DNA of 64,000 nt from Thermoplasmata archaeon (GCA_046758325.1 JBHHZZ010000001.1:17016-81015); one strand, 5' to 3'. Numbered from the stretch's first letter, positions 3,058 through 45,027 are shown. The notes: a model not told the origin generated them from the letters alone. Numbers and translations: made by a program.

Positions 3058-3516
3058 TTGAGAAAGCCATGGGCGATCCGAAAGGATCAGGCCGCAGTGT
3101 CGCCGGTTATTGCTACCATCCTCATGGTGGCGATCACCGTCGTCCTGGCCGCAGTCCTGTACGTAATGGTATCAGGACTAGTCAGTGGTCCTGGGTCGAC
3201 GCCTGAAGTCATACTAGTCTCGGTCAGAAAGACCACAGACGGCACCAACTGGGAACTGACCTTCCAGGACGTTCCCACGGGGAAGAGCCTATCTTCCGTC
3301 TATCTGATTGTCTTCTACGGCAACGGAACCGTTGCACTGACGAAGACTGCCCTTAGCTCGCTAAGCGGCAACGCCCAGTTCGTACAGATAGATACTAGCG
3401 CAACAAGCATACAGGCCGGAGACAGGTTGCTGCTGAGCGTCACTACGTACGCAGCAGGCTCCACCTTCCAGTTGGTGGATGACAACGGCGTCCTAGCAAC
3501 GGGAACACTACAGTAG
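3058..3516 (+). CDS. Archaeal class III signal peptide (type IV pilin-like) protein
   Basis: MRKPWAIRKDQAAVSPVIATILMVAITVVLAAVLYV is a prepilin-like N-terminus. TTG start sits 8 nt downstream of GGAGG; an alternative ATG at 2938 overlaps the upstream gene. Confidence 0.5.
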   Translation: MRKPWAIRKDQAAVSPVIATILMVAITVVLAAVLYVMVSGLVSGPGSTPEVILVSVRKTTDGTNWELTFQDVPTGKSLSSVYLIVFYGNGTVALTKTALSSLSGNAQFVQIDTSATSIQAGDRLLLSVTTYAAGSTFQLVDDNGVLATGTLQ

Positions 3517-3523
3517 ACAACGC

Positions 3524-3556
3524 GGGAGTTTCCCGCACCTCCCCCTTTTTATTTTT
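3524..3556 (+). terminator. Hairpin (gcggga-gtt-tcccgc) followed by the oligo-T run ccccctttttatttttcg
   Basis: Inverted repeat plus T-tract immediately 3' of the pilin-like gene. Confidence 0.4.
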
Positions 3557-3766
3557 CGTTATTCTTGTAAACGGAAGTGGAAGCCAGAGGAGGACTTTCG
3601 TCGGGTAGACTTCGGGTCGGCCCAACCGATGCGGACGACTGCTTCGAGAAAAGTCGGTGCCACTCAGATCGCCCATCATTCATCATCCTCAGCGTCGGTA
3701 CTTGTCATCACAGCGGCCTTATTGTTATGAACCTCCGATGCCTTATTGGTTGCGGTACGAGGTATC

Positions 3767-4439: not shown

Positions 4440-4552
4440 CCGTGACCATAGACTTCCAGGCGAACTTAAACCCTTCGTCGGCCATTTAATCAGGAACCCG
4501 CTGGAAATAGATAAATAGGGGCGCCCTGTCAGTATCCAATCCAGGTGGGGCC

Positions 4553-7500
4553 TTGGCCGAAGCAAAGACCATTAGGCAGACAATCAGCGTCACCCTCATT
4601 CTAGGTGGCATCTTCGCCCTCGCCGTCTTCATCCGGGCCTACTTCGCCTACGACCTGGCCCTCCGGGACTTCCTCGTGTCGGGAGGTTCCGACGCCTTCT
4701 ACTACAAACGCATCATCGACTACATCGTCTCCACGGGGAAGCACCTCGTCCGGGATGAGATGCTGAACTATCCCTTCGGAATGAACAACCCCAGGCCCCC
4801 CATCTACGCCTGGAGCGTGGCCCTCATCGGCATCCTGCTGGGCAACGTGCAGGGCTCCCTGGAGCTCGGAATATGGCAGAGCTTTCTCTTCTCCACCGCC
4901 TTCTGGGGCGCCCTCACCATCTTCCCCACCTACTTCCTGGCCCGGGACATCTTCGGCCGTCGGGTCGGGTTCGTGGCTGCATTCTTCTTGGCGATCCTCC
5001 CGGCCCACATTCAGAGGACGCCCCTGAGCAACGGGGACCACGACGCCCTCGTCCTCTTCTTCGTGGTGACTGCCTTCTACTTCTTCCTGAGGGCCTTGGG
5101 AGAGCTCAAGGAGAAGACCTGGGTGGACAACTGGATCAGGCCCACCACCGTATATCGGGGTTTGAGGCAGCTCATCGGGGAGAATAGAAGACCCGTCCTC
5201 CTATCGATCATGTCCGGCACGGCCATAGCGGTGGTGGCTCTCACCTGGCAGGGGTGGGCCTATGCCCCGGTGGTCGTAATAGCCTACTTCCTGGTCCAGC
5301 TCCTGGTGCACAAGTTGAGGAACCAGGACCCCCTGGGCACCCTCCTGTGCTTCACCGTGGCCCTGGGAACCGCTCATCTCCTGGCCGCTCCCTACTACAT
5401 CGCAACCGGCTTCGTCCGCACATGGTTCGACGTGCCCCTATTCCTCTTCGCCGCCTCTGTTGCCCTGGGCTTCCTCTTCGCCATCTTCCATCGCCTACCA
5501 TGGATGTTGGTCATCCCGCCCATCGTCCTTGGCTTCGGGGCCGGTCTTGCCATCGCATCCCTCTACAGTCCGGCGGTGGCCCAGACCCTGACCTCCGGTC
5601 TCGGTTACTTCGTCAGGACGAAGGTCTATGAGACCATCGCCGAGGCCCAGCCCCCTAACCTGAGCCAGGCAATCCTCTCCTTCGGCGCCGTGACATATTA
5701 CCTCTCCATGGTCGGCATCGTCTGGATGGCCATCCAGTTTGTTCGGAGGCCAAGGCTCCATTATCTCTTCGCCCTAGCGTGGAGCGCTGCGGCCATCTTC
5801 ATGGCCATGTCAGCCGTCCGGTTCATCTTCAACGCTTCCCCCGCCTTCGCCATCACCTCGGCGTGGGTGACGGTCCTCATCGTGGAGAGGCTGGGGCTAG
5901 AGCAGGTGAGGAAGGCCGTGGTATCCACGGGCGGGAGCAAATGGGTGGCCCTCAAGAGGGGGATAAAGGTCAGGCATGTGGCCGGAGCCCTCTTCGTTGC
6001 CCTTCTCCTCATCCTTCCTAACACCTGGTACGCCGTAGACGCTGCCATACCCTTCGAGAAGAAGCAGGAACTGGATCTGGAGGTGTACAGGAGCACGCCG
6101 GAGCCCCTGAGGCCCCAGGGCTACAGGGAGGGGAGTCTCTTCTACTTCGGCGCCTTCGGTTACAGTCTTCCCCTACCCAACAGGTACTTCCCGAAAGCTT
6201 GGGAATGGCTACGCCAGCAGGACGCCGACATAGTGCCGTATTGGGAGCGACCTGCCTTCCTGAGCTGGTGGGACTACGGGTTTGAGGCCATCCAAGAGGG
6301 CAGGCACCCGACAGTGGCGGACAACTTCCAGAACGGTCTCGAGTTCGCGGGTCACTTCCTGGCGGCCCAGAGCGAGAACGAGGCCATCGCGGTACTGAAC
6401 ATACGCCTCCTCCATGGAGACTTGACCCTCAACCGCGGCAGCTTCAGCGCGGGGGTCCGACAGGCCCTGGCCGATAAGGGCCTGGACCCTGATTTCGTGA
6501 AGGACGTCCTTCGCAGGCCCGCCGTCTACGTCCCCCTCATTAGGTCAGACCCGGATCGCTTCGGGGAATGGGATGTCCGACTCTCCAGCAAGAACGTGAG
6601 GGTGATCTTCCTCAAGACCGTGCTGACGGAGACGCTGGACCTGGACGGTCAGGCTGATCTCTATAGGGACCTGAGAAGCGCCACGGGCAACTCCGTCCTC
6701 TATTTCGCAGTCGACTCCCGACTCGTGCCCTTCTCAGGGACGAACACCGGGATATTCTACGCACCCATCAAGCTCACAGACCACAGAACGGTGGAATTGC
6801 CCGATGGCAGGAGCATACCCGTAGACTTCTACAGACTGGTGGCAGAGACAGACCGGGGGGAATATGACCTCGAAAAGGTGCCGCCAACGGCCAGGGTCAT
6901 CAACATCCGCATCGAGTACAAGGAGATGTTCTACAACAGCATGCTGTACAGAATCTTCTTCGGAACTCGCGGCCAGGACGTGGGTAAGGAGGACGATGGG
7001 CTTCCCGGGATATCTGGACAGCTGCAAGCAGAGGCACCCAGCCAAGGCCGAATGCTGAAGCACTTCAAAATGGTTTATCGAACGGCGTATTTCAACCCGA
7101 ACCCGCCCGACGAGGCCGCCAACAGAACGGAGGACTGGAGTGCCATCAACCTGTTCGACGCTCTGGAGCTGCAACAGAGCATCGAACGCGGGGAAGCAGA
7201 GGGGACCGTGGACATCTCGGCCCGAGCAAGTCTGCAACAGGGAATCGTCATCCTGAAGTACTACGACGGGGCCATCCTTAGGGGCCAGGTCACGACTCAG
7301 GCAGGCAGACCGCTGGAAGGAGTAAGGATAACAGTGCTCGACGACCTTTCCATACCCCACGATGTCACCTTCACAGACTCCAAGGGATTCTACGAAGCCC
7401 TGCTGCCCTTTGGGGAGGTCCGGGTGGTGGCCTCCGTGGGAGATGTGGACGGCGCTACCCAGACTGGGAGAACTGTCCTGGGCGAGAAAGAGCTGACGGT

Positions 7501-19801: not shown

Positions 19802-20086
19802 CTACTTTTTCCCAACCTTCTCCCAAATCTCCTCAAACTCCTTCCAGAACCTGAGTATGGTAGGGGTGAGGAAGTATAGGGTTCCGTATTCCTCCCCCTC
19901 GGAAGTCATCACCAGATCGTTCCTCTTCAGCACCTTGAGATGATGCCTCACCGTCTTGTAGTCCACTCCTAGCTCCGACGCGAGGCTGTTGGCGTTGTAG
20001 GGACGCTCCTTCAGGAGTACCAGGATGCGAGCGCGATTGATACCGCCCCCGGTCCCCACGACCAGGTGCCAAAGGAGCTTCTTCAA
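19802..20086 (-). CDS. Winged-helix (ArsR/PadR-like) transcriptional regulator
   Basis: RARILVLLKERPYNANSLASELGVDYKTVRHHLKVLKRNDLV is an HTH plus wing. Confidence 0.6.
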   Translation of the reverse strand: MKKLLWHLVVGTGGGINRARILVLLKERPYNANSLASELGVDYKTVRHHLKVLKRNDLVMTSEGEEYGTLYFLTPTILRFWKEFEEIWEKVGKK

Positions 20087-35299: not shown

Positions 35300-36424
35300 T
35301 TAACGGATAAGGTCTATCTCCCCCTCCACGATGTGCCCCGTCTCCTTTCCGAGGAGGTGTTCGCCCTCCACCCCTGTCAGAACCACGAGGACGCGGACAT
35401 CCTCCTTCAGGTTGGGATCCACCGAACAACCCCAGATGATGCGGGCCATGCTGTTTATCCTGTCCCCTATGAGTTCGGCCGCTCGCTCGGCCTCGGACAC
35501 CGTCAGGTCGGTGCCGCCGACCACCCGGATGAGGGCCCCACCGACCTGGCTGAGGTTGACCTCTCCCAGGAGGGGTGATTCCAGGGCCTCGGCCACCGCC
35601 ACGTCGATCCTATCCGTCTCGCCTCCACCCTCCCCCATGCCGATCATGGCCACCCCGCCATCCTCGATGATCGTCATGAGGTCGCTGAAGTCGATGTTCA
35701 CCAATCCTGGCCTCGTGACTATCTCGGTCATGCCCTTTATGCTCTGCATGAGGATTTCGTCCGCGACCTTGAAGGCGGCCTCGATGGGCAGCTTTGGGAC
35801 GAGCTCCAGGAGCTTGTCGTTCTCGATGACGGCCGTGGTGTCACAGTAGCGTCGAAGCTTGTCGATGCCGCCGTCAGCGTTATCCCTCCTCATGCCCCCC
35901 TCGGCGGTGAAGGGCATGGTCACCACGCCCATGACGAGGGCGCCAGTCTCCTTCGCCAGTCGCGCAACAACATGAGCGCTACCGGTCCCCGTTCCCCCTC
36001 CAAGGCCCGCCGTCACGAAGACGACGTTGGCTCCCTGCAGGAACGCCCTGATCTCCCCCTCACTCTCCCTAGCCGCCTTCTCACCTATCTCAGGGATGGC
36101 CCCGGCACCCAAACCCCTGGTAATGCGCCGGCCGATGAGCATCTTCTTGGGGGACCTGATATGGAGGAGATGCTTGGCGTCGGTGTTGATGGCGCAAAGC
36201 TGAGCGCCCACTATGCCGGCCTCGCACAGCCTGCTAATGGTGTTGGACCCTCCGCCGCCGCAACCCACAATCTTGATGCTGACGCTCAGGGACTCCACAA
36301 TGCCCCTTAGCTCCTCGTCCTCTTCTGCAATGGGGAGGTTCATGGCCTCGTGAGGCTCTCCCCCTCCGACCCCCTCAAACCTGGCGATGGCCCTGTCGAC
36401 AATGGACTTCATAGAGCATCCCAT
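35300..36424 (-). CDS. ftsZ: Cell division GTPase FtsZ
   Basis: [18 protein letters not shown] tubulin signature. Confidence 0.85.
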
Positions 36425-36476
36425 CCCGTAGGAGGGCCTGATTTCCCTCAGCGTATTTAAAACTAATCAGGTCGAC

Positions 36477-37652
36477 CTACCAGGCGCCCTTGCCACGGCG
36501 GAAGATCGCGGCCGAGGCGGCGGCGGTGACGGCCACCCCAAGGAGGACGTACATGATGACACCTGGCGTAAGCTCCCGGATGGGACCCTCCAACAGCTCC
36601 CCGATGGTGAGTATCTTGGTGGAGAGCTCGGGGATGTAGACCAGGAAGATGATTCCGTTGGGTCCCGTGGCGGCATAGTATCTGGGGGAAGAGGAGGAGG
36701 ATGAGGGAATCTCGTCCGCGTTGTTCGTCCTTTCGACGGGGTTGCCGTCCAGTTCCACAGATAGCCTGTCCATGTCCGCAATCTTGAGGACCTCATGGTG
36801 CAGGTTGATGGCAACCACGATGCCCGGCGATGGGACCGCTGTCTGGGAATCCCGGGAAATTGTGACCTCCACGTTTCCCGCCGCGTCGAGGCTCGACTTC
36901 ACAGATATGTCGGAGTAGAGGACCGCGTCCTCCATGATGCCCCCCTCAAAGGCAACCAGGAAGAGCTCCGCGCCCAGCCTCTGCCGGGCCAAGGCGTTGA
37001 AGACGGTCGCCTGGGCCCAGGAGCCGACCGCCCCTTCATCATCTGCTGGATGGGCCCTGAAGGAGATGACGCTGCCCTGAGACAGGCCGACTCTGACGAC
37101 GTTCGGCTCTACTGAGGTCGTGCTCGACCCGGGCGTGGCGAGCTGACCGCTGAAGCCCGTCCCTGAGACGAGGACGGAATCGCTCTGGAGGGCGAAGAAG
37201 ACGCCTGGAGCGGCTGTGAAGGTGATGCTGAGCTGTTGGGCCATGGAGCGGTAGACGAGGGCCCGGCTGGGATTGTTATGGATACTGACCGATACGTCCG
37301 TACCTTCAAACAAGAGGGCGGGTGACTCTTCAGGTGCTAGGGCCCAAGCTCCAGTCTCCGTGGTGCCTTCGACCTCGACCTGTGCAAACACCTCTGTTGA
37401 CACACCGTCCCTCACGATGCTAAAGGAGGCTAGGCTGCCGTCTGTTCCGAGCATCTCTGCTTCCACGAAGGCGCCCTCGAGAACGCCACCCTCGAACGAG
37501 AGTGGGCCGAACATTCCGACACTTTGGGCTAGATCGAGAGCCTCTTTCCTCCATTCAGCACCGAAAGGTGGCTCGAAGGGGGGCTGAGCCGCGCCTGCCC
37601 CTACGAGTAGGATGACGGATGCGAACACCACTGCCAGGTAGACTCCCCTCAT
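36477..37652 (-). CDS. Secreted surface protein with signal peptide and C-terminal TM anchor
   Basis: N-terminal MRGVYLAVVFASVILLVGAGAAQ; C-terminal IMYVLLGVAVTAAASAAIFRRGK. Confidence 0.5.
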   Translation of the reverse strand: MRGVYLAVVFASVILLVGAGAAQPPFEPPFGAEWRKEALDLAQSVGMFGPLSFEGGVLEGAFVEAEMLGTDGSLASFSIVRDGVSTEVFAQVEVEGTTETGAWALAPEESPALLFEGTDVSVSIHNNPSRALVYRSMAQQLSITFTAAPGVFFALQSDSVLVSGTGFSGQLATPGSSTTSVEPNVVRVGLSQGSVISFRAHPADDEGAVGSWAQATVFNALARQRLGAELFLVAFEGGIMEDAVLYSDISVKSSLDAAGNVEVTISRDSQTAVPSPGIVVAINLHHEVLKIADMDRLSVELDGNPVERTNNADEIPSSSSSSPRYYAATGPNGIIFLVYIPELSTKILTIGELLEGPIRELTPGVIMYVLLGVAVTAAASAAIFRRGKGAW

Positions 37653-37843
37653 TCCACATCACCCTCCGTGGGCCCCCTGGTGGACCACCACGGGAGCTGC
37701 TCGGGGCCCACAGGAAGACGAGCGCCCAGCCCGAGTACGATCTGTCGGGGCCCTTGGTTCGCATCCTCCGGCCCCCTGGAGAATCCGAGAGGATGAGGGG
37801 AGGCCTCCACATCGTCCCCGAGGAGCGCTGTCTCTGCAGGCAC
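37649..37843 (-). CDS. Putative small leaderless ORF (64 aa, Pro/Gly/acidic-rich) coupled by ATGA to the downstream surface protein gene
   Basis: ATG lies about 28-30 nt downstream of the TATA at 37868-37879. Its TGA stop overlaps the ATG of the 36477-37652 gene. Confidence 0.3.
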   Translation of the reverse strand: MPAETALLGDDVEASPHPLGFSRGPEDANQGPRQIVLGLGARLPVGPEQLPWWSTRGPTEGDVE

Positions 37844-37867
37844 ACTGGAGATTACGCGTCCGGGGCC

Positions 37868-37920
37868 TTAAATAGAATTTGGCACAAATCTCGAACCGCT
37901 TCATACGACCATCGAACTCA
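37868..37920 (-). promoter_or_regulatory. Promoter: TATA (ccttaaatagaat) plus two TCGAAC-core boxes 21 nt apart
   Basis: cacaaatcTCGAAcc at 37883-37897 and cgaccaTCGAActca at 37906-37920; same architecture as at 41297-41352 and 42272-42325. Confidence 0.45.
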
Positions 37921-37928
37921 CGTGGCCC

Positions 37929-39023
37929 TCACAGGGCTTCAAGAAGATCGAGACCTTGTATCAGCCCGTATCCGTATAGGTCGTCGTGGGGGACCTCCTG
38001 GTCATCCAGCTCGCGGGCCGTCTCCATCAAAGCCATCTTCAGCTGGAGCACGCCACTCGAAGATGATGCGATCTTGAGAGAGGGCATGCCCTGTAGGATC
38101 AGGGCGAGGAGGGCGGAGACGAAGGCAGCGGCGGCTGAGGTGCCCGAGATCCTCACGTACTTTCCGTCGAGACTCGCGGTTACCAAGTCCACGCCAGGGG
38201 CCACCGCCTCCGGCTTCTTGTTGGGGTCCGTCCTACCTTCAGGGTTGAAAGGTCTCGGCCCATTGTTGCCCCCCTGGCTGAAGGGCGCTATTCGGAGGGA
38301 GCTGTCCACCGCTCCTACAGCTATGACGAGGGGTTCCGAGGCAGGGCTCTGAACATCTCGAGCGGCGGACCCCTCGTTTCCCGCAGCCGCCACGACAAAG
38401 ATGCCCTTGGACACCGCTTCCGCCGCTGCGGCCGCGACCTCGTCCTCCTGGACGGGGCGCGTGGAGCCCCCTAGGGAGAGAGAGATGATGTGAGACCTAG
38501 TGTTGTTTCCAAAGGGGTCCATACAGAACGTGATGCCTTCCAGGACGACTGAGGAGCCGCTCTCCCCCGTCTCCGTGATGGCCTTTACCACAACGAGGGA
38601 GACCTTGGGCGCGAGGCCCGATACCTGCCCCTGAGCGGCGATAAGGCCCACCATGGCGGTCCCGTGGCCCTCGTCGTCGTAGGGGTCTTCCCTCCCGTTG
38701 ACAAGGTCCTTCCACGCCAGAAGGTTAACATCCGATAGTCCAGGATGCTGCAAATCTACGCCAGTATCGACGACGCAGAGAATGACTCCGCTACCGTCTA
38801 GCCCCTTCGCATGCAGCTGTGTAGCCTGTGTGACGGACCAGGCCCACTCGTTACCTGGGACCAAACCTAGGAGCCTCTCCAGCTCCGGGAGGACCGGCAG
38901 CAGGGTGATTCCCACGATTCCTAGAAGCAGAACGATGACGACGACGGCCGCCCACCTCCGGCGTCGCCCGGACCTTGGCTCAGGGCCTGGTAAAGCCGTA
39001 TCCCTCATGCTCTGGATTTTCAT
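37929..39023 (-). CDS. Subtilisin-like S8 serine protease with N-terminal membrane anchor/signal
   Basis: VVDTGVD...HGTAMVGLIA...GTSAAAAFVSA gives the D/H/S triad. Confidence 0.8.
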   Translation of the reverse strand: MKIQSMRDTALPGPEPRSGRRRRWAAVVVIVLLLGIVGITLLPVLPELERLLGLVPGNEWAWSVTQATQLHAKGLDGSGVILCVVDTGVDLQHPGLSDVNLLAWKDLVNGREDPYDDEGHGTAMVGLIAAQGQVSGLAPKVSLVVVKAITETGESGSSVVLEGITFCMDPFGNNTRSHIISLSLGGSTRPVQEDEVAAAAAEAVSKGIFVVAAAGNEGSAARDVQSPASEPLVIAVGAVDSSLRIAPFSQGGNNGPRPFNPEGRTDPNKKPEAVAPGVDLVTASLDGKYVRISGTSAAAAFVSALLALILQGMPSLKIASSSSGVLQLKMALMETARELDDQEVPHDDLYGYGLIQGLDLLEAL

Positions 39024-39093
39024 AGGAGTCAGCGGGTATTAGGCCCTTGGGTCTCTTCTGCTCCAGGCGCAGTCCCAGCTCTCCCGCCTAGGG

Positions 39094-41034
39094 TTACCCT
39101 CCATCCCCCTTTCTCATGAGCTTGAACACGAGGAAGCCTAGGACCGCCAAGAGAGTGGCTATCCCAACCGCGACATAGAACAAGCTCGTGCTGGTCAGGG
39201 GAGGCGGGAAGTCGCTGAAGGTCAGGGTGATGCTTTCGGAGCTGTTGAGCTCAGTCTGGGCCGATTGAACGCCCGAGTCATAGAGTGAGCCCATGTACGA
39301 GGTCACGTAACGAGCCTGGACTGTGTAGCTGCCCCCGGGCAGGAGCAGCACGACTGTGCCGTCTGGACCGGTAAGGCCAGCGTCATAGACGAGACCCGTG
39401 GAATCTGTCAAGCTGACGAACACGCCCGAGAGCGCCTGTCCGTCTCCCGACATGGTGGTGACGGTGAGCTTGTAAACGGCCGTCCTGAAGGCGATGATAT
39501 CGTTGCCCACCACGTCACCGCTTCCGTTGAAGACGTCGACCCCCCGCCAGGCTGCCAGGAGGGCGTATGTGCCTACCGGGACCTGGCTGAGGGTGACCTG
39601 GCCGCTTCCGTCGGTCTTGTAGGGGCCGAGTTTCTCCCCGTTTGGATGAATGAAGATCAGCGAAGCCCCCGCCAGGGCAGAGCCGTCTGAATCCTCAGCC
39701 TGGAAGACGGGGTAGTACACCTGTGTGTCGATTACCAGAGGGTTCGACTCTGTGATGTTGGACTGGACATCCTGAAGCGAGGAGGCGACCCTCACGTCTT
39801 GCCAATAGACCTGGAACTCGTACGCGGCCTTGGCCATGGTAAAGTTCACCATTCCATCCGGGTCCGTCGTCTTGGCGTCTACGATGAAGCCGCCACTTAC
39901 CAGTTCCACCCTCGCACCTGCCAGGGGCACGCTCTTGGAGTCGACCGTCTTTACGTTTGCATAGACGGGCAGCCCGTCGATGAAGAACGTCGATGTAGCG
40001 GTATCGGGATAATCGTCATAGTCGAACTGCTGGAAGAAGTGGTAGTAGTTGTGACCGTTGTTGTCGAGCGCCCAAACCTGCATCGTGTATTCCCCGATTG
40101 CCTGGTCCGTGTAGTTCCAGACGACCTCGAACACGCTGTCGTAGCTCCTAGGGGTGCCAGAAATGTGGGCCATGGAGACGTTGTCCAGGAGGACGACGCC
40201 GAACGGAGACATGAGGGTAAGGTTGACCCAGCGGATGTCGTACCCGCCTAGGGGGTCGGTAACATTGGCCTGGATGTACACCGTCTTGTTTTCAGCCACA
40301 GGATCGAAGTTGATTTCTGGGTTCCGATTCCAGTCCAGGGTCGCGATTGTGGCAACATCCAGGGAATCGGGTCCACGAAAGCTAATGCGGCTGTTGACCT
40401 GGGGTGTGTCGTAATGAAGCCAGATCCCTTGCAGAGCTCCCGGCGTGACGGTCATCCGCAGCTCGATGGAAGATCCGGCTCGGAAGGTGTGAGGGGACAC
40501 AAAGGTCGCGTTCCAGCTAGCCAGTGTCGGTGTGACTGGAAAGTCCTGACTGCCCAAGTTCTCCTCATGGACCAACGTGGAGGTCGTCGTATTCAGCTCG
40601 AAAATCTCCAGGGTGACCTGCGCGTTGCTGCTCGCTCCCGTAGAGGAATTGGCCCAGATTCGCAGGGTGAATCCATCCGCGCTGAAATCGCCCACCAAGG
40701 CAGGGACTGAGAACCACTGCATCACTTTCTGCGTTCCCTCGACCAGAACGCTTACGTTCACGTCGTTGAAGTCCAGGGTCGTATCGAAGTAGGTGAGTGT
40801 GCTGCCACCGTCCGGCAAGGGCTTTGCCGTCTCTGTTGCGTTGACCGAGTGGAGCAGAAAGGTCATGTCTTTTGTCACGCCGTTGACGGCGTGGACCGTG
40901 GGGGCCGGAAGCGTGACCACGAGTAGGGCGGACAGGACGAGCAGCGGAAGAGCGAGCAACGTCAAGGCCTTGGACGCAGTCGATCTCGTTCCTGCATACC
41001 GGAGAGGGGTCTTTTCTCGGGTCATGGGAAGCAC
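39094..41034 (-). CDS. Large secreted glycoprotein candidate: signal peptide, CarboxypepD_reg-like repeats, many N-x-S/T sequons, C-terminal TM anchor
   Basis: GARVELVSGGFIVDAKTTDPDGMVNF..., GASLIFIHPNGEKLGPYKTDGSGQVTL..., GVFVSLTDSTGLVYDAGLTGPDGTVVL...; at least 14 sequons; C-terminal LFYVAVGIATLLAVLGFLVFKLMRK. Confidence 0.55.
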   Translation of the reverse strand: MLPMTREKTPLRYAGTRSTASKALTLLALPLLVLSALLVVTLPAPTVHAVNGVTKDMTFLLHSVNATETAKPLPDGGSTLTYFDTTLDFNDVNVSVLVEGTQKVMQWFSVPALVGDFSADGFTLRIWANSSTGASSNAQVTLEIFELNTTTSTLVHEENLGSQDFPVTPTLASWNATFVSPHTFRAGSSIELRMTVTPGALQGIWLHYDTPQVNSRISFRGPDSLDVATIATLDWNRNPEINFDPVAENKTVYIQANVTDPLGGYDIRWVNLTLMSPFGVVLLDNVSMAHISGTPRSYDSVFEVVWNYTDQAIGEYTMQVWALDNNGHNYYHFFQQFDYDDYPDTATSTFFIDGLPVYANVKTVDSKSVPLAGARVELVSGGFIVDAKTTDPDGMVNFTMAKAAYEFQVYWQDVRVASSLQDVQSNITESNPLVIDTQVYYPVFQAEDSDGSALAGASLIFIHPNGEKLGPYKTDGSGQVTLSQVPVGTYALLAAWRGVDVFNGSGDVVGNDIIAFRTAVYKLTVTTMSGDGQALSGVFVSLTDSTGLVYDAGLTGPDGTVVLLLPGGSYTVQARYVTSYMGSLYDSGVQSAQTELNSSESITLTFSDFPPPLTSTSLFYVAVGIATLLAVLGFLVFKLMRKGDGG

Positions 41035-41035
41035 G

Positions 41036-41278
41036 CTACCGGGTGACTAAGCTCTTCGCTGCAGCCGCAATCGCGGCCCCGATACCACCCCCTGCGGCTC
41101 CACCGGCGAGGGCGTTCGAGACCGCTGAGACCACCGTGTAGCCATGCGTTCCCTGCGGGATGTGGGCGAGGGCGACGCCCAGCCCCGTGACGTCTCCTGT
41201 TGTCACCGACATAATCCCCATGGTGACTGCTCCGATCGCCGCCCCAACGGCGGCCGCGATGGGTATTGATATCATCAT
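41036..41278 (-). CDS. Small Gly/Ala-rich (glycine-zipper-like) membrane peptide, first gene of the surface operon
   Basis: 80 aa with AAAVGAAIGAVTMGIM...GGAAGGGIGAAIAAAA. Its stop is 1 nt from the downstream start. Leaderless, with the ATG about 24 nt from the TATA. Confidence 0.45.
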   Translation of the reverse strand: MMISIPIAAAVGAAIGAVTMGIMSVTTGDVTGLGVALAHIPQGTHGYTVVSAVSNALAGGAAGGGIGAAIAAAAKSLVTR

Positions 41279-41296
41279 TGTTTCGATGAGGCACTG

Positions 41297-41352
41297 TGTT
41301 TAAGAGCGCTTTGGCTCAAGCAACGAACAGTGTGGAACAAGCTTCGAACAAG
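41297..41352 (-). promoter_or_regulatory. Promoter: TATA (tgtttaagag) plus two CAAGCnnCGAAC boxes 21 nt apart
   Basis: caagcaACGAAc at 41317-41328 and caagctTCGAAc at 41338-41349. Confidence 0.5.
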
Positions 41353-41593
41353 AGTCTCTCAGTCATGGACTAGGCGCACGGAAGGCGAACGGGACCGCCC
41401 TAGGATGCCCGCAGACGGCTGCTGGGGAAGGGACTGGACACCGGCATCGGCCGCGACCGGTCGGTTTTCGGGAACGTGCATCGAGAACCGGTGCGCTCCT
41501 CGGTTCACTTGATGGAGAGTGCCGCTGTCTGGCTCCTTGAGGACACGCTTAGGGTGTGTTGGAAGAGCCGGCAAAAGAAAACCGGGGGAAGGG

Positions 41594-42250
41594 CTAGTGC
41601 CTCTTCCGCAGGGCCACCGTGGCAGCTAGCAGGACGATGACGACCGCCAGTGTGATGAGGGCCCAGCCCATGGCGGTGAGGCCGTCGGCTCCCAGTATGG
41701 TGCCGATGTCTGAGGTCGTCGGGGATATCTCGATGTACTGGACCGAGAAGTGCGTGATCACGAAGACGTAGACCTCCGCACCACCTGCATCCACTGAGCT
41801 GGTCACGCCCTGGTAGTTCACCCCCTCCGAGACCTCGATGGATAGACTGCTTTCATCACTCTCGACGTAGGTTTCTATGAAGTCCTTGTTGACGAGGAGG
41901 GTCACCAGATTGGTCGGGACCCCGTCCTCCGCCTCTATGGAGAGGGCCTTTGTGTCCGTGGAAAGGGAGACGGTTACCCTGTCGATCCCGTCCGGCGTGC
42001 CGGCGTTGACGACCAAGGCTGCCCACGGCTCGATGTCATCTGTAAAGATGAACGTGGCGACGCCTATCCTGGCGGCGTCGTTAGCGGTGCCGATGGCCGA
42101 TTCCGTGTCCTTTCCTGGTACTGACGGAAGGTCGATCGTCAGAGGGGACTGGGCGGAAGCCAGACCCCCGAAGACGAGGGCCAGACCGATGAGGAAGGCT
42201 ACCCTCACCATTGCTGCCCCCGTTTCCATCCTCGTAGTCCTCAGCTCCAT
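41594..42250 (-). CDS. Secreted protein with signal peptide and C-terminal TM anchor
   Basis: N-terminal VAFLIGLALVFGGLASAQS; C-terminal WALITLAVVIVLLAATVALRKRH. Confidence 0.5.
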   Translation of the reverse strand: MELRTTRMETGAAMVRVAFLIGLALVFGGLASAQSPLTIDLPSVPGKDTESAIGTANDAARIGVATFIFTDDIEPWAALVVNAGTPDGIDRVTVSLSTDTKALSIEAEDGVPTNLVTLLVNKDFIETYVESDESSLSIEVSEGVNYQGVTSSVDAGGAEVYVFVITHFSVQYIEISPTTSDIGTILGADGLTAMGWALITLAVVIVLLAATVALRKRH

Positions 42251-42271
42251 GGTACTGGCTCTGCCAGGAGA

Positions 42272-42325
42272 CCTTATATTCTGTTTGGCACAAGCCTCGA
42301 ATCGCCTAGCACAGGCTTCGAACGG
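42272..42325 (-). promoter_or_regulatory. Promoter: TATA (ccttatattc) plus two CA(A/G)GCyTCGAA boxes 21 nt apart
   Basis: caagccTCGAAt at 42291-42302 and caggctTCGAAc at 42312-42323; the ATG is about 27 nt from the TATA (leaderless). Confidence 0.5.
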
Positions 42326-42396
42326 AATGAACTGCTATTATCGATACTAAAAACAGAAGCTTTTTACCAGCCCCTAGGCTATTTCCGTTTGATTAC

Positions 42397-42678
42397 ATGG
42401 TTTCCCTGAGCGAAGTTGAGCCCTTCTTTCGGGTATCCTTGATGGGATTTGCCCTGCTCCTTACGATCCTCATGGGCGTGACCACCTACCGTGTGAAGAG
42501 CGGGAAGCTCCTCCTGGTAACTCTGGGATTCCTGGCCTTCTTCATCAAGGGACTTCTCCTGACCTTGGGAATCTTCTTGACCGCGTTCAGAGACGCTTTC
42601 CAGGCCAACCCGGAGATAATGCTGATGGACTTCGCCATCCTCGTCCTGATCTACGCGGGGATGGTAAAGGGCTCCTGA
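42397..42678 (+). CDS. Small 3-TM membrane protein; paralog of the 19462-19752 gene
   Basis: 93 aa with three hydrophobic helices; alignable with the 19462 ORF. Confidence 0.45.
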   Translation: MVSLSEVEPFFRVSLMGFALLLTILMGVTTYRVKSGKLLLVTLGFLAFFIKGLLLTLGIFLTAFRDAFQANPEIMLMDFAILVLIYAGMVKGS

Positions 42679-42688
42679 GGACAGGCCC

Positions 42689-43210
42689 ATGGGAGAGGAG
42701 GAGGTCCTGGACCTCGAGAGACGCAGAATGGTCTACCAGTTCATCAAGTCCCATCCGGGGCTCCACATGAGGGGCCTGGAGAAGCGCCTAGGCATCTCCC
42801 TGGGGGACCTAAGGTACCACCTGGACTATCTCGAGAAAAAGGAGTTGATAACCAGCCGGAGCGATGGCTACAGGAAGACTTACTTCTCCACTAGGGATGT
42901 CTACCTCCAGGATAGGGACCTTCTGGCCCTGCTGCGGCAACGTGGGCCCAGGAAGCTCATCCTGCATCTCATGCTCACCCAGAACGCCTCCTTCGACGAG
43001 CTCCGCCAGGTCTTGGGAGTGTCGAAATCCACCCTCTCCTTTCACTTAAGAAAGCTCACAGACAAGGGTATCGTGAAGGTCCTGAGGCGGGAGGGAAAGA
43101 ACGCCTACTACGTGGAGGACAAGGAGAACGTTGCAGAGCTGCTGATTACCTACAAGGGGAGCTTCCTGGACGAAGCGGTTGACAGGGTGTTGCAGGTCTG
43201 GCTTCCCTAG
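42689..43210 (+). CDS. Transcriptional regulator with two tandem wHTH domains
   Basis: Two repeats: ...FIKSHPGLHMRGLEKRLGISLGDLRYHLDYLEKKELI... and ...ASFDELRQVLGVSKSTLSFHLRKLTDKGIV.... The first resembles the 19802 regulator. Confidence 0.6.
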   Translation: MGEEEVLDLERRRMVYQFIKSHPGLHMRGLEKRLGISLGDLRYHLDYLEKKELITSRSDGYRKTYFSTRDVYLQDRDLLALLRQRGPRKLILHLMLTQNASFDELRQVLGVSKSTLSFHLRKLTDKGIVKVLRREGKNAYYVEDKENVAELLITYKGSFLDEAVDRVLQVWLP

Positions 43211-43968
43211 GCCTCCTCCGCGTGGACGAGAATGCCGCCCTCCTTGATCTCCATGGGGACGATGTACTCCAAGTGGCTGGAGCCCTTGTACTTCTCGATG
43301 GAGATGAACCTCTTGATGCCGTTCTCGTGACGGAACTTGTACAGTCTGATCTCGCCCCTGGCCAGGAATGTCTCCAGCTTCGATCCTGTGTTATCCGGTG
43401 TCTCCACCGTCATCAGGGCCGTTTTCCCCGACTCCGTGAGGAAGCGGATGAAGGACTGGGTACTCACGTTCTCCTCGAAGTCCCGCATGCAGAACTGCCT
43501 CAGAGCCGTCAGACTGTCGATGACGACCCTCTGGTAGTCCCTCCTCGTGAAGAGGTTCTTGAGGGCCTGTTGCAGGGAGTGGACCGTCACCTCCCGGGAT
43601 TCCCCCTCAGGACTCTTCCTGATCTTGAAGGGAACGTTTTTCATGGGTACGGCGCCAATCTCCGAGGAGATCTCCAGAATCGGTTTGGGCTCGAACCTGC
43701 GGATGTCGGAATTTGCGTCCAGGATCTCCACGTCCCCGACCTTCCATCCATAGGACTCCATGTTATACCTTATCTCGTTTGGCGGCTCCTCCAAGGCAAC
43801 GAAGAGGACCCTCTGCCCCTCCTTCAGCCCCTGCAGGAGGAACTGCATGCATAGGGTGGTCTTCCCACTGCCCAGGGGGCCGGAGACGATGTAGGGCCTT
43901 TTGGGGATGAGGCCTCCCTTGAGCATGCGATCGACCCCCTCTATGCCCGTCGTAACCTTGTCCACCAT
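43207..43968 (-). CDS. KaiC-like single-domain ATPase
   Basis: GIEGVDRML...VSGPLGSGKTTLCMQF. Confidence 0.7.
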   Translation of the reverse strand: MVDKVTTGIEGVDRMLKGGLIPKRPYIVSGPLGSGKTTLCMQFLLQGLKEGQRVLFVALEEPPNEIRYNMESYGWKVGDVEILDANSDIRRFEPKPILEISSEIGAVPMKNVPFKIRKSPEGESREVTVHSLQQALKNLFTRRDYQRVVIDSLTALRQFCMRDFEENVSTQSFIRFLTESGKTALMTVETPDNTGSKLETFLARGEIRLYKFRHENGIKRFISIEKYKGSSHLEYIVPMEIKEGGILVHAEEA

Positions 43969-43971
43969 GGC

Positions 43972-45027
43972 CTACCTCTCGATCAGCCTCTTCGCCACGG
44001 CCTTCTCCTTCCTCTCCCTCAGGACCTGCAGTAGGGAAAGGGACTGTCTCAGCACATCCTCATGTCTGCCCAGGTGAAGGTATATCATGACGCGATAGAT
44101 GCGGGGGCTCAGGTCTCCGACGTCGATTCCCCTCACCTCGCAGTCCTCCCACAGCCTTATGATCTCCTCTAGGAACTCGGAGGCCTCCTCGGACATGATG
44201 TCCTGCAGGAAGTGGCCCACGAAACCGTCGGTCCTCTGGCCGTGGAGGGAAACCTCTCCGTCCGCCAGGACGAATATTCCCTTGCTCCCGATCACCATCG
44301 GCCTGAAACGATCGTCGAAGGGGGAGCCCCTGAGCCTCTCTATGGAGATGGCTCTCCTCACGGCGTTGGACTCAAACCACTTATGGAGCCTGATCTCGCC
44401 CCTGGCAAGCAGGAACTCCGTCTCGACTTCTCCGGGGTTCGGTAGCTCCGTGATGATGAGGGTTGTGGCCTCCAACTCCGAGAGGAACCGCATGAAGGAC
44501 TGGATCAGTATGCGCCTGTCCTCTCCCCTCATTCCAAACATCTTGAGGCTGGTCATGGAGTCGATGACGACCCTGGTGTACCTCTTCCCCGTGGCCTTGA
44601 AATGCCCCTGAAACTCCTGCTTGAGCATCTTCTGGACTGAGTGGATGGACACTTCCATGACCCGGAGCTGTTGGCTCTTCCTCATCTCAGTGACCTGCTC
44701 CATGTCGCGGACGTCGAGGGTGGTGCCCACATCGATGATCGTCTTTGTCTTGCTGTGGGAACGGATGTCGGGGGTGGCATCGAGGATACGAAGACGGTCA
44801 AGACTCCACCCGAAATGGGCCATGTTGGTCTTGATCTCGTTGGGTGGCTCGTCTACCGCCACCATGATGACGCTCTCGCCGTTCTTTATGCCCTCCAGGA
44901 GGAAATGGATGCCGAGAATGCTCTTGCCGCTTCCGGGAGGGGCTGTGACCACGTATGGACGGCCGGGAATCAGACCTCCGTAAAGCATCTTGTCTAGACC
45001 CTCGATCCCCGTCGATACCCTGTTCAT
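43972..45027 (-). CDS. KaiC-like ATPase with roughly 100 aa helical C-terminal extension
   Basis: GIEGLDKML...VTAPPGSGKSILGIHF plus a C-terminal tail. Confidence 0.7.
   Translation of the reverse strand: MNRVSTGIEGLDKMLYGGLIPGRPYVVTAPPGSGKSILGIHFLLEGIKNGESVIMVAVDEPPNEIKTNMAHFGWSLDRLRILDATPDIRSHSKTKTIIDVGTTLDVRDMEQVTEMRKSQQLRVMEVSIHSVQKMLKQEFQGHFKATGKRYTRVVIDSMTSLKMFGMRGEDRRILIQSFMRFLSELEATTLIITELPNPGEVETEFLLARGEIRLHKWFESNAVRRAISIERLRGSPFDDRFRPMVIGSKGIFVLADGEVSLHGQRTDGFVGHFLQDIMSEEASEFLEEIIRLWEDCEVRGIDVGDLSPRIYRVMIYLHLGRHEDVLRQSLSLLQVLRERKEKAVAKRLIER

Follow-up and report, generated by a model that had tools for sequence, protein, structure and literature searches.

Paired direct-repeat boxes upstream of three promoters in a surface-protein gene island of a Thermoplasmata archaeon, and a candidate double winged-helix regulator

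Genes of the island and their promoters

The window, as we call the whole stretch of 64,000 nucleotides that was analysed (Thermoplasmata archaeon, GCA_046758325.1 JBHHZZ010000001.1:17016-81015), hosts an island of genes for surface proteins, all on the minus strand. The genes are transcribed from three promoters, denominated P1, P2 and P3, and are flanked by a short operon of opposite polarity.

36477..37652, minus: 391-aa surface protein, the P3 target (signal helix, β-rich ectodomain, C-terminal TM)
37653..37845, minus: P3 leader, about 193 nt, holding a non-conserved 64-aa ORF
37929..39023, minus: 364-aa S8 subtilase (PF00082, 1e-46) with an N-terminal membrane anchor
39094..41034, minus: 646-aa Ig-like/CarboxypepD_reg surface protein with N- and C-terminal TM segments
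41036..41275, minus: 79-aa Gly-rich membrane peptide, first gene of the P1 unit
41575..41593, minus: oligo-T terminator-like tract CCCCCGGTTTTCTTTTGCCGG, directly 3' of the 218-aa gene, predicted from sequence only
41594..42250, minus: 218-aa secreted/anchored protein, the P2 target (signal peptide, C-terminal TM)
42352..42368, plus: conserved block AACAGAAGCTTTTTACC, found by alignment 28 nt ahead of the ATG, probable BRE/TATA of the divergent operon
42397..42678, plus: 93-aa three-TM membrane protein, directly upstream of the regulator gene
42689..43210, plus: 173-aa double winged-helix protein (HTH_HVO_0163_N plus ArsR-type HTH_5), the candidate box-binding regulator

The oligo-T tract supports the notion that P1 and P2 serve separate transcription units. 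The 218-aa and 391-aa proteins exhibit no similarity to each other. Orthologues of the former are encoded behind the same paired-box module in several loci of other genomes (L003, L005, L030, L046, L097, L105, L124), and orthologues of the Gly-rich peptide were found in L086, L087, L097, L105 and L124. The gene for the 391-aa protein is divergent from the regulator operon in L047 and L048, and comparison of the loci indicates that it is the ancestral divergent partner of this operon.

The sequence elements identified at the three promoters, with boxes given as 14-nt units in gene sense and scores derived from a matrix built on other genomes, are the following.

41336..41349, minus: P1 distal box GTTCGAAGCTTGTT, 24.3 bits
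41315..41328, minus: P1 proximal box GTTCGTTGCTTGAG, the weakest box, 13.9 bits, backed by the exact 21-nt register
41310..41314, minus: P1 CCAAA, BRE-like, abutting the proximal box
41298..41306, minus: P1 weak TATA CTCTTAAAC, which in orthologues reads CTCTTAAGG
42310..42323, minus: P2 distal box GTTCGAAGCCTGTG, 24.0 bits
42289..42302, minus: P2 proximal box ATTCGAGGCTTGTG, 22.4 bits
42284..42288, minus: P2 CCAAA, BRE-like, abutting the proximal box and invariant in all sites
42273..42280, minus: P2 TATA box AATATAAG, with the ATG (42250) 22 nt downstream, a leaderless geometry
37904..37917, minus: P3 distal box GTTCGATGGTCGTA, 16.9 bits
37883..37896, minus: P3 proximal box GTTCGAGATTTGTG, 20.1 bits
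37878..37882, minus: P3 CCAAA, BRE-like, abutting the proximal box
37866..37875, minus: P3 TATA CTATTTAAGG

Start codons are found at +31/+34 (P1) and +33 (P2) after CCAAA, about 19-23 nt past the TATA; in the Gly-rich peptide it is the second ATG (41275, MISI…), at +34, that is conserved as the start. At P3, the gene for the 391-aa protein starts about 195 nt downstream, and has its own Shine-Dalgarno sequence (GGAGGGTGA). The 64-aa ORF lying in between (37649-37843) has no counterpart in any of the related loci compared, and no unusual structure was detected in the P3 leader (z = -0.72). All three promoters had been regarded as leaderless in an earlier note on this DNA; start geometry bears this out for P1 and P2, while P3 is leadered in this window, and its small ORF is not conserved. 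The TATA of P1 type (CTCTTAAGG) is weak and conserved; those of P2 and P3 look ordinary.

Architecture and significance of the paired boxes

The three promoters share, in gene sense, the module GTTCGArGCyTGTG(CCA)-N7-rTTCGAgGcTTGTG-CCAAA-N3-6-TATA. All sites lie within 4.5 kb, and the period from distal to proximal box is exactly 21 nt in each of the three. Boxes lack dyad symmetry, and are arranged head-to-tail as asymmetric direct repeats. In about 30 sites from this and other genomes the proximal box runs straight into CCAAA and the TATA begins 3-6 nt further on; without exception, boxes overlap neither the TATA nor the start site. CCAAA is probably the BRE, because it fits the layout of generic promoters in the window, in which rAAA is located 3-4 nt ahead of the TATA and paired boxes are missing. 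The invariant CCAAA after each proximal box had been overlooked in the earlier note, as had the tendency of the repeat unit to reach 17 nt (…TGTG-CCA).

The minimal pattern proposed at first, TCGAA-N16-TCGAA, is loose: in the window it has 16 matches at up to one mismatch, mostly in coding DNA, versus 3.15 expected. The 18-base pattern GTTCG-N17-TTCG-N4-TTG-N-GCCAAA is matched in the window without mismatches by P1, P2 and P3 alone, and no further match is encountered up to three mismatches (0.03 expected). About 128,000 window positions were also scored with a weight matrix trained solely on 25 distal boxes from other genomes. The six boxes rank as the top six (24.3, 24.0, 22.4, 20.1, 16.9 and 13.9 bits), and the next-best position scores 12.2 bits. 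Maxima in block-shuffled sequence average 13.9 bits and reach 17.5 bits; the P1 proximal box, at 13.9 bits, is not significant alone, and becomes so solely through its exact 21-nt register. The occurrence of paired boxes at three promoters is confirmed: all six were found where they had been reported, and pattern and matrix statistics agree on a non-random architecture common to the three.

Distribution of the module and linkage to the regulator gene

Boxes, CCAAA and TATA are retained, and spacers and flanks diverge, in loci retrieved through regulator homologues 62-82% identical (L001, L003, L005, L046, L047), and likewise in L030, retrieved by motif scan. The proximal box is still present in L048, where the regulator is 51% identical. 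Presence at orthologous promoters, suggested earlier as a check on the boxes, was verified over the range of 51-82% regulator identity. A GC-rich variant of the module precedes different genes in far more distant MAGs. When 32 offsets were tried on 33 sites outside the window, the second box scored best at exactly 21 nt in 29 of them. This set is in part ascertainment-biased, as the pattern used to retrieve some of its members imposes GTTCG at -21; in loci reached via the regulator protein, the distal box is present in 8 of 9 sites.

Genes located behind the module are mutually unrelated, and nearly all encode secreted or membrane-anchored products. Those found elsewhere include a Cys-rich secreted protein of 86 aa, a protein of 166 aa, a GT2, a BamB-like propeller and a PKD-repeat protein. 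Weak Pfam hits, below gathering cut-offs, mark two distant targets as cytoplasmic MinD/ParA-like ATPases, and for this reason the regulon is not made purely of envelope proteins. The idea of a dedicated regulon for secreted or envelope proteins survives in this form, as a small set of which nearly all members are secreted or anchored.

A DNA-only motif scan covered 185,579 species genomes. Fourteen of the 40 matches fall in 13 loci from MAGs of Thermoplasmata, Methanomassiliicoccales or Lutacidiplasmatales; the other 26 are single bacterial occurrences, scattered and close in number to the ~17 expected by chance. The motif is lineage-restricted. A regulator homologue is found beside the motif in 6 of the 13 loci, and in three of these (L035, L039, L042) it is a mere 33-35% identical. 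No homologue was found within the 8 kb examined in the remaining seven, as expected, although this is no proof, if they host other members of the regulon. Adjacency of motif and regulator gene is correlative.

In the window, the gene for the 173-aa protein is divergent from P2. It is always immediately preceded by a gene for a three-TM protein of ~93 aa, and the pair is kept down to 33-45% identity; KaiC-like ATPase genes are further neighbours. The N-terminal domain matches PF24266 (4.1e-15, 56 bits versus a cut-off of 31), and the C-terminal one is an ArsR-type HTH_5 (PF01022, 8e-13; NF033788, 66.7 bits versus a cut-off of 55). The AF2 model (pLDDT 90.7) features two complete wHTH units in one chain, and the recognition helix of the second, SKSTxSFH, is nearly invariant. 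By Foldseek the C-terminal half has the fold of CzrA, NolR and HlyU (target TM 0.7-0.78), and full-length matches are tandem-WH proteins such as ScpB. The order of an HVO_0163-type HTH and a second wHTH, in about 170-180 aa, is that of PF24266 double-wHTH proteins, of which ~1,020 full-length representative clusters were collected at E<=1e-10. No functional literature on these proteins was found, and the 173-aa protein is a member of an uncharacterised regulator family.

A probable operator, alternatives and related systems

The boxes are plausibly a conserved operator, most likely of the 173-aa protein, which would most probably activate a small envelope regulon; we give this reading a probability of about 0.6. 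In the ~17-bp asymmetric unit GTTCGA-N3-yTGTG-CCA, conservation is concentrated in two halves separated by about 9-11 bp, a spacing that would suit the two dissimilar wHTH domains of a single molecule, so that each box might accommodate one. With a period of 21 bp, two molecules would sit head-to-tail on one face of the helix, and the proximal molecule would be in touch with the BRE and could contact TFB/TBP. Genes under activation would be leaderless or short-leadered, and encode secreted and membrane-anchored proteins; locally they would be those for the 218-aa protein, for the Gly-rich peptide, the 646-aa Ig-like protein and the subtilase, and for the 391-aa surface protein. The 93-aa protein, co-transcribed with the regulator, may be the link by which the membrane or envelope, according to its state, influences regulator activity. 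Asymmetric direct repeats, and a candidate regulator with two dissimilar wHTH in a single chain, lend no support to the dimer-of-dimers envisaged in the earlier note. Activation is favoured because the site is immediately upstream of the BRE, a position given in PMC5512572 as typical of archaeal activators and described there for EarA, Ptr2 and the ara-box.

It is possible, if rather doubtful, that the same protein on the same operator acts as a repressor or in a dual manner, blocking TFB at the BRE or spreading cooperatively from the two boxes over the core promoter, with de-repression on a signal passed by the membrane protein. ArsR/SmtB-type domains like its C-terminal wHTH belong to a family of mostly repressors, no gap separates the proximal box from CCAAA, and a negative element directly ahead of a BRE is known from haloarchaea (phaRP promoter, as cited in PMC6085418). 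Most archaeal repressors, however, overlap the TATA or the start (PMC5512572), which the boxes leave clear in all ~30 sites. Simple occlusion would not require the distal box, which lies at about -60 to -73, and the conserved weak TATA of P1 suggests a need for help, as would be typical of activator-dependent promoters.

That the operator is genuine but belongs to another factor, for example the ArsR-type product of 19802-20086 or an unlinked one, the double-wHTH gene being a bystander or a regulon member, is improbable. Binding of the boxes by the double-wHTH protein is predicted from genomic linkage, and among regulators 39-45% identical a recognisable motif may be missing: none is near the gene in L125 and L128, a single box is present in L126 and a putative variant alone in L127. 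Against this, the motif-only search repeatedly reaches regulator homologues, among them ones of only 33-35% identity, in varied gene arrangements. Window scans by motif and matrix detected no box-like site near 19802-20086, and this gene recurs in none of the motif loci examined. Of the two regulators nominated earlier, the comparative evidence supports the product of 42689-43210; no motif link was found for the other.

That the basal machinery, such as an alternative TFB/TBP pair, reads the shared sequence as an extension of the core promoter is very improbable. CCAAA is BRE-like and contiguous with the proximal box, but the second box, 21 nt further upstream, is beyond known TFB contacts, generic promoters in the window do without paired boxes, and the module is confined to 2-5 promoters per genome, all of them beside or close to members of a single regulator family. 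Recent duplication of a promoter within the island, leaving a similarity devoid of regulatory meaning, is suggested by the closeness of the three sites and by an island gene content that varies between relatives. This reading is effectively refuted by conservation confined to boxes, BRE and TATA amid unrelated spacers, flanks and downstream genes, and by persistence of the module at 51-82% regulator identity and, in its GC-rich form, in MAGs of much greater distance upstream of different genes.

The 173-aa protein and its proposed operator have partial parallels. Proteins of the ArsR/SmtB group (CzrA, SmtB, NolR, HlyU) resemble its C-terminal half in sequence and fold, and the winged helix-turn-helix is shared. 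Each of their chains carries a single wHTH; they assemble into symmetric homodimers, and most act as repressors at inverted-repeat operators overlapping the promoter. The candidate regulator has two wHTH per chain, and the boxes are direct repeats in an upstream position. Among solved structures, the closest to the N-terminal wHTH is PDB 5DUK (E 1.7e-12), a 77-aa 'putative DNA binding protein', a single domain of no known function and hence mechanistically uninformative. Ptr2 of Methanocaldococcus jannaschii is an Lrp-family protein acting on paired palindromic sites, unlike the asymmetric direct repeats and the single-chain double wHTH described here. Its sites and the Sulfolobus ara-box are similarly placed just 5' of BRE/TATA, where they activate by recruiting TBP/TFB, according to PMC5512572, in which the ara-box factor goes unnamed. 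EarA is a winged-helix activator of the Methanococcus maripaludis fla (arl) promoter, proposed to help TFB at a weak BRE, and likewise involves short repeated sites immediately upstream of BRE/TATA at cell-surface genes (PMC5512572, PMC10117864). EarA sites, however, are four 6-bp motifs, rather than two 14-17 bp units with a 21-bp period, and by description EarA has one wHTH instead of two. Its gene always adjoins a methyltransferase gene, whereas the regulator gene here always adjoins that for the three-TM protein; no EarA-type context (methyltransferase gene and/or arl/che clusters beside the regulator) was found here, and arl genes are missing from the window and related loci.

The UAS responding to GvpE in haloarchaeal gas-vesicle promoters is bipartite and direct-repeat-like, and abuts the BRE in divergent promoters of a structural gene cluster. 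The boxes described here resemble it in bipartite organization, position against the BRE and location in a divergent promoter region; sequences and lineage differ, and GvpE is leucine-zipper-like, unlike the wHTH candidate. An interaction of GvpE with TFB figures among the references of PMC6085418. In line with upstream activating sequences in general, the boxes lie upstream of BRE/TATA without overlap, recur at several promoters and are conserved at orthologous ones.

Paired boxes in the window

The promoters P1, P2 and P3 feature each a distal and a proximal box. All six boxes lie at the exact coordinates that the earlier note had given for them, and the claimed spacing of 21 nt is exact in the three promoters alike. 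Proximal boxes are followed by an invariant CCAAA, absent from that description. Promoters, given in gene sense, and genes are as follows.

41315-41349, minus strand, P1: GTTCGAAGCTTGTT-ccacact-GTTCGTTGCTTGAG-CCAAA-gcgCTCTTAAAC
42289-42323, minus strand, P2: GTTCGAAGCCTGTG-ctaggcg-ATTCGAGGCTTGTG-CCAAA-cagAATATAAGG
37883-37917, minus strand, P3: GTTCGATGGTCGTA-tgaagcg-GTTCGAGATTTGTG-CCAAA-ttCTATTTAAGG
P1 unit, minus strand, first gene: 79-aa Gly-rich membrane peptide
P1 unit, second gene: 646-aa Ig-like/CarboxypepD_reg protein, with terminal TM segments
P1 unit, third gene: S8 subtilase, with N-terminal anchor
P2 unit, minus strand: 218-aa protein, with signal peptide and C-terminal TM anchor
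P3 unit, minus strand: 391-aa protein, with signal helix, β-rich ectodomain and C-terminal TM helix
42397-42678, plus strand: 93-aa three-TM protein, in the operon divergent from P2
42689-43210, plus strand: 173-aa candidate regulator, with two winged-helix domains (HTH_HVO_0163_N and ArsR-type HTH_5)

The window comes from a Thermoplasmata MAG, the closest relatives of which are labelled Methanomassiliicoccales. The oligo-T tract found directly 3' of the 218-aa gene supports the existence of separate transcription units. Between this terminator-like tract and the P1 boxes, 244 nt (41350-41593) are apparently non-coding, and host a 71-aa ORF (41359-41574). Pfam and NCBIfam searches gave no family match for the 218-aa, 391-aa, 79-aa and 93-aa proteins. 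AF2 modelled the 391-aa protein only moderately well (pLDDT 69), and Foldseek matches of this model, to β-supersandwich domains of glycosidases, are weak (TM about 0.25). Promoter similarity does not result from whole-gene duplication, because the 218-aa and 391-aa proteins proved unrelated when compared. The likeness of GTTCGAA to a tRNA T-loop was judged coincidental, in view of the lack of conservation at position 9 and of a wrong distance to CCA. The 36000-43500 region has no Rfam match at E<=1.

The pattern TCGAA-N16-TCGAA, suggested earlier for searches, has 16 matches in the window at <=1 mismatch (3.15 expected), and is a poor discriminator, as 13 of the 16 matches are irrelevant and mostly located in coding DNA. 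Too loose to define the element, it has been replaced by the 18-base pattern GTTCG-N17-TTCG-N4-TTG-N-GCCAAA, which in the window identifies the three promoters only, even at 3 mismatches (0.03 expected). Exact matches to the extended pattern TTTGGCNCAANNNNCGAA are similarly confined, in the window, to the three promoters. Since training a matrix with the six window boxes themselves is circular, the matrix was rebuilt with 25 distinct distal boxes, all from other genomes. The six window boxes are the six best matches to this independent matrix on both strands, ranging from 24.3 to 13.9 bits; the next-best window position scores 12.2 bits, and shuffled maxima have a mean of 13.9 and a top value of 17.5.

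Boxes in other genomes and metagenomes

Related contigs were retrieved through regulator homologues, L030 instead through the motif scan. At orthologous promoters box pairs are kept in L001, L003, L005, L046, L030 and L047.

Table. Box sites in related loci (in brackets, identity of the encoded regulator to that of the window)
L001 (82%): three box pairs at equivalent promoters
L003 (82%): two pairs and one proximal-only site
L005 (72%): without the island; trio of 215-aa protein, 93-aa protein and regulator kept, with a pair between
L046 (70%): at least three pairs
L030 (62%): two pairs; locus from the motif scan
L047 (62%): pair directly between the 391-aa orthologue and the regulator operon
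L048 (51%): proximal box and TATA only

Conservation in eight aligned divergent intergenic regions is limited to two places. One includes the boxes, CCAAA and the TATA; the other is the block AACAGAAGCTTTTTACC, located 28 nt before the ATG of the 93-aa gene, which is probably the own promoter of the 93-aa protein/regulator operon. Between the P2 distal box and this putative promoter, the palindrome TATCGATA (42338-42345) could be the site of a second factor; in the intergenic alignment it is found at the same place in L001 and L105, not in L003. The gene content of the island changes by gains and losses between close relatives: the S8 subtilase gene, intact in the window, is reduced in L003 to fragmented and frame-shifted remnants (3309-3627) upstream of a P3-type promoter.

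Thirty non-redundant sites fit the profile GTTCGA.gctTGtg-c.A..-gTTCGaggcTTGTG-CCAAA-..g.ataTAAgg, in which the search regex had fixed the proximal TTCG, TTG, G and CCAAA, but not the distal box. The sequence [G/A/C]TTCG occurs at exactly -21 in 27/30 of these sites, and in 8 of the 9 sites belonging to loci reached via the regulator protein, an unbiased subset. Among 32 offsets tried, exactly 21 nt gave the best second box for 29 of the 33 sites outside the window; a three-box array has it at 42 nt. In L086, three boxes with a 21-nt period precede the gene for the Gly-rich peptide (CTTCGAAGATTGTG-CCAAAgc-GTTCGCGACTTGCG-CCAAA, plus a degenerate unit further upstream), and denote that box number can vary.

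A single run of the 18-base pattern over 185,579 species-representative genomes retrieved 39 loci. Thirteen of these, with 14 matches, belong to Thermoplasmata, Methanomassiliicoccales or Lutacidiplasmatales MAGs. The remaining 26 are single matches scattered across unrelated bacteria, a number close to chance (~17 expected, 4^18 over 1.2e12 positions). Distant GC-rich MAGs feature the variant GTTCGGnnnTTGCG-CCAnnnn-GTTCGGnnnTTGCG-CCAAA. Thirteen further genuine loci, seven of which host two sites, have been identified in metagenomes, where recurrent targets are the Gly-rich peptide, starting at +34 after CCAAA, and the 218-aa family, at +33 to +46; a new target is a Cys-rich secreted protein of 86 aa. 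Distant targets include a PKD-repeat protein, a BamB-like β-propeller, a family-2 glycosyltransferase and two MinD/ParA-like ATPases (weak Pfam matches).

About 25 other metagenome matches were discarded as members of an unrelated low-GC repeat family. The corresponding contigs (GC 0.38-0.46) have in common a near-identical repeat of ~75 nt, GTTCGTCCGTCTGTccgtcacGTTCGTGAGTTGCGCCAAAacgaataaagatatcttcgaaattttttcaccatc, which matches the search pattern by chance (L053, L057, L058, L068-L071, L074, L077, L078, L083-L085, L089, L092, L093, L098, L101, L106, L110-L112, L117, L119, L121).

The candidate double-wHTH regulator and its proposed mode of action

A regulator homologue was detected by tblastn beside the motif in 6 of the 13 archaeal loci of the genome scan. 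In L035, L039 and L042, loci found from DNA alone, the homologues are only 33-35% identical to the window regulator, and in the latter two a small three-TM gene is kept between motif and regulator. Four more homologues (39-45% identity; L125-L128) are each preceded by a 90-96-aa gene, and the motif fades in their neighbourhood: in L126 a single good box with TATA precedes a TSP3-repeat protein, L127 features GTTCAC-N4-TTGTGTCA, possibly a variant, and no boxes were found near the regulator homologues of L125 and L128. Around the regulator gene of the low-GC L127 locus (39% identity) three sites (4549-4565, 5050-5066, ~3650-3690) have the sequence (GTTCAC)-N4-TTGTGT(C/T)A and then a TATA; a PepSY gene lies downstream of one site, the three-TM gene downstream of another. 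They may be a lineage-specific box variant. The ArsR-type gene at 19802-20086, also proposed as candidate regulator, received no support from motif and matrix scans of the window. The regulon interpretation of the earlier note is supported by genomics, through both conservation and operator-regulator linkage.

Two KaiC-like ATPase genes (43207-43968 and 43972-45027, both minus strand) face the regulator gene in convergent orientation. In L001, L003, L047 and L048 the gene order is FtsZ, 391-aa surface protein, [93-aa protein and regulator], KaiC-like, KaiC-like, and is thus kept down to 51% regulator identity; the ATPases may have a functional link to the regulator.

AF2 modelled the regulator with confidence (pLDDT 90.7), as two complete wHTH units (recognition helices 38-50 and 113-125) and, after these, two C-terminal helices. 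Similarity between the two halves is weak (36% over 25 residues, E = 0.008). Foldseek matched the whole chain, at low TM, to tandem-WH proteins such as ScpB, and the C-terminal half matched well ArsR/SmtB repressors; the only solved relative by sequence of the N-terminal half is the uncharacterised 5DUK. NCBIfam assigned the protein only to a generic ArsR/SmtB subfamily. At E<=1e-10 the family is large, with about 1,020 clusters at 50% identity, nearly all of which are full length. Literature searches retrieved no functional study of this double-wHTH family, and nothing useful on HVO_0163 and archaeal tandem winged-helix regulators. The wHTH-2 recognition helix (SKSTxSFH) is nearly invariant among homologues, and the wHTH-1 helix differs between the two motif variants; the co-variation of the boxes (GTTCGA…TGTG vs GTTCGG…TGCG) with this diverged helix is suggestive, with no half-site assignable.

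Generic promoters in the window read rAAA-N3-4-TTTATAA, with the start codon about 22-27 nt further on, so that CCAAA is most simply taken as a BRE. The approximate positions would then be -39 to -52 for the proximal box and -60 to -73 for the distal one. In archaea, binding sites immediately 5' of the BRE are typical of activators, and repressors overlap the core promoter or start site (PMC5512572); a negative element bordering a BRE on its upstream side is known too (PMC6085418). Boxes lack dyad symmetry and are arranged head-to-tail. Symmetric dimers, and hence the activator 'dimer of dimers' envisaged earlier, do not fit sites of this kind. They do fit a single chain with two different wHTH domains, one of which would read GTTCG and the other TTGTG-CCA, the conserved halves of each box, spaced by about 9-11 bp; on paired boxes, two such molecules would be two helical turns apart. 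We infer the binding geometry, the sign of regulation and any role of the three-TM protein as partner.

The elements described, with functional claims drawn from genomics, probably represent an upstream operator of archaeal type, linked to an uncharacterised family of single-chain double-wHTH proteins that pairs with a membrane protein. There is perhaps one chance in four that the small three-TM protein, the single-chain, pseudo-dimeric regulator and the head-to-tail 17-bp boxes next to the BRE form a previously unrecognised archaeal envelope-signalling circuit. Depending on the state of the envelope, the membrane protein would hold the regulator or let it go; once free, the regulator would bind one molecule per asymmetric box, two in helical phase, and recruit TFB, switching on surface-protein genes. 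Such a circuit would resemble an anti-sigma/ECF pair in the way it works, with archaeal components. If true, it would provide the first function and operator logic for a family of about 1,000 sequence clusters.

To our knowledge, operators have been defined for few transcription activators of archaea, none of them from Methanomassiliicoccales-related Thermoplasmata, for which a literature search found no promoter or TSS studies. Provided here are a cis-element that is sharply delimited and backed by phylogenetic footprinting, a specific candidate factor belonging to a large double-wHTH family as yet uncharacterised, its conserved membrane-protein partner and a coherent set of surface and secreted targets. 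Envelope-protein control in a wall-less or S-layer-poor archaeon becomes a question testable in vitro, and the two-box pattern can be used to annotate the regulon in other MAGs.

Leaders and start codons

P1 and P2 have the leaderless geometry attributed to them, the conserved P1 start being the second ATG, at 41275. P3, also claimed to be leaderless, with a small ORF, is instead followed in the window by a leader of ~190 nt. The 64-aa ORF located there was rejected as a real leaderless gene: it lacks homologues in any related locus, and in L001 and L003 the +34 start is that of the surface protein. Behind the window's leader, which is not unusually structured (z = -0.72), the 391-aa gene carries a Shine-Dalgarno of its own; a leader of ~190 nt is also found at the P3-type promoter of L097. 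Long untranslated leaders (~190-240 nt) with no sequence in common are found downstream of some box-bearing promoters (window 37653-37845; L097 ~5420-5610; L001 7995-8231; L003 8501-8694), and orthologous promoters elsewhere are leaderless.
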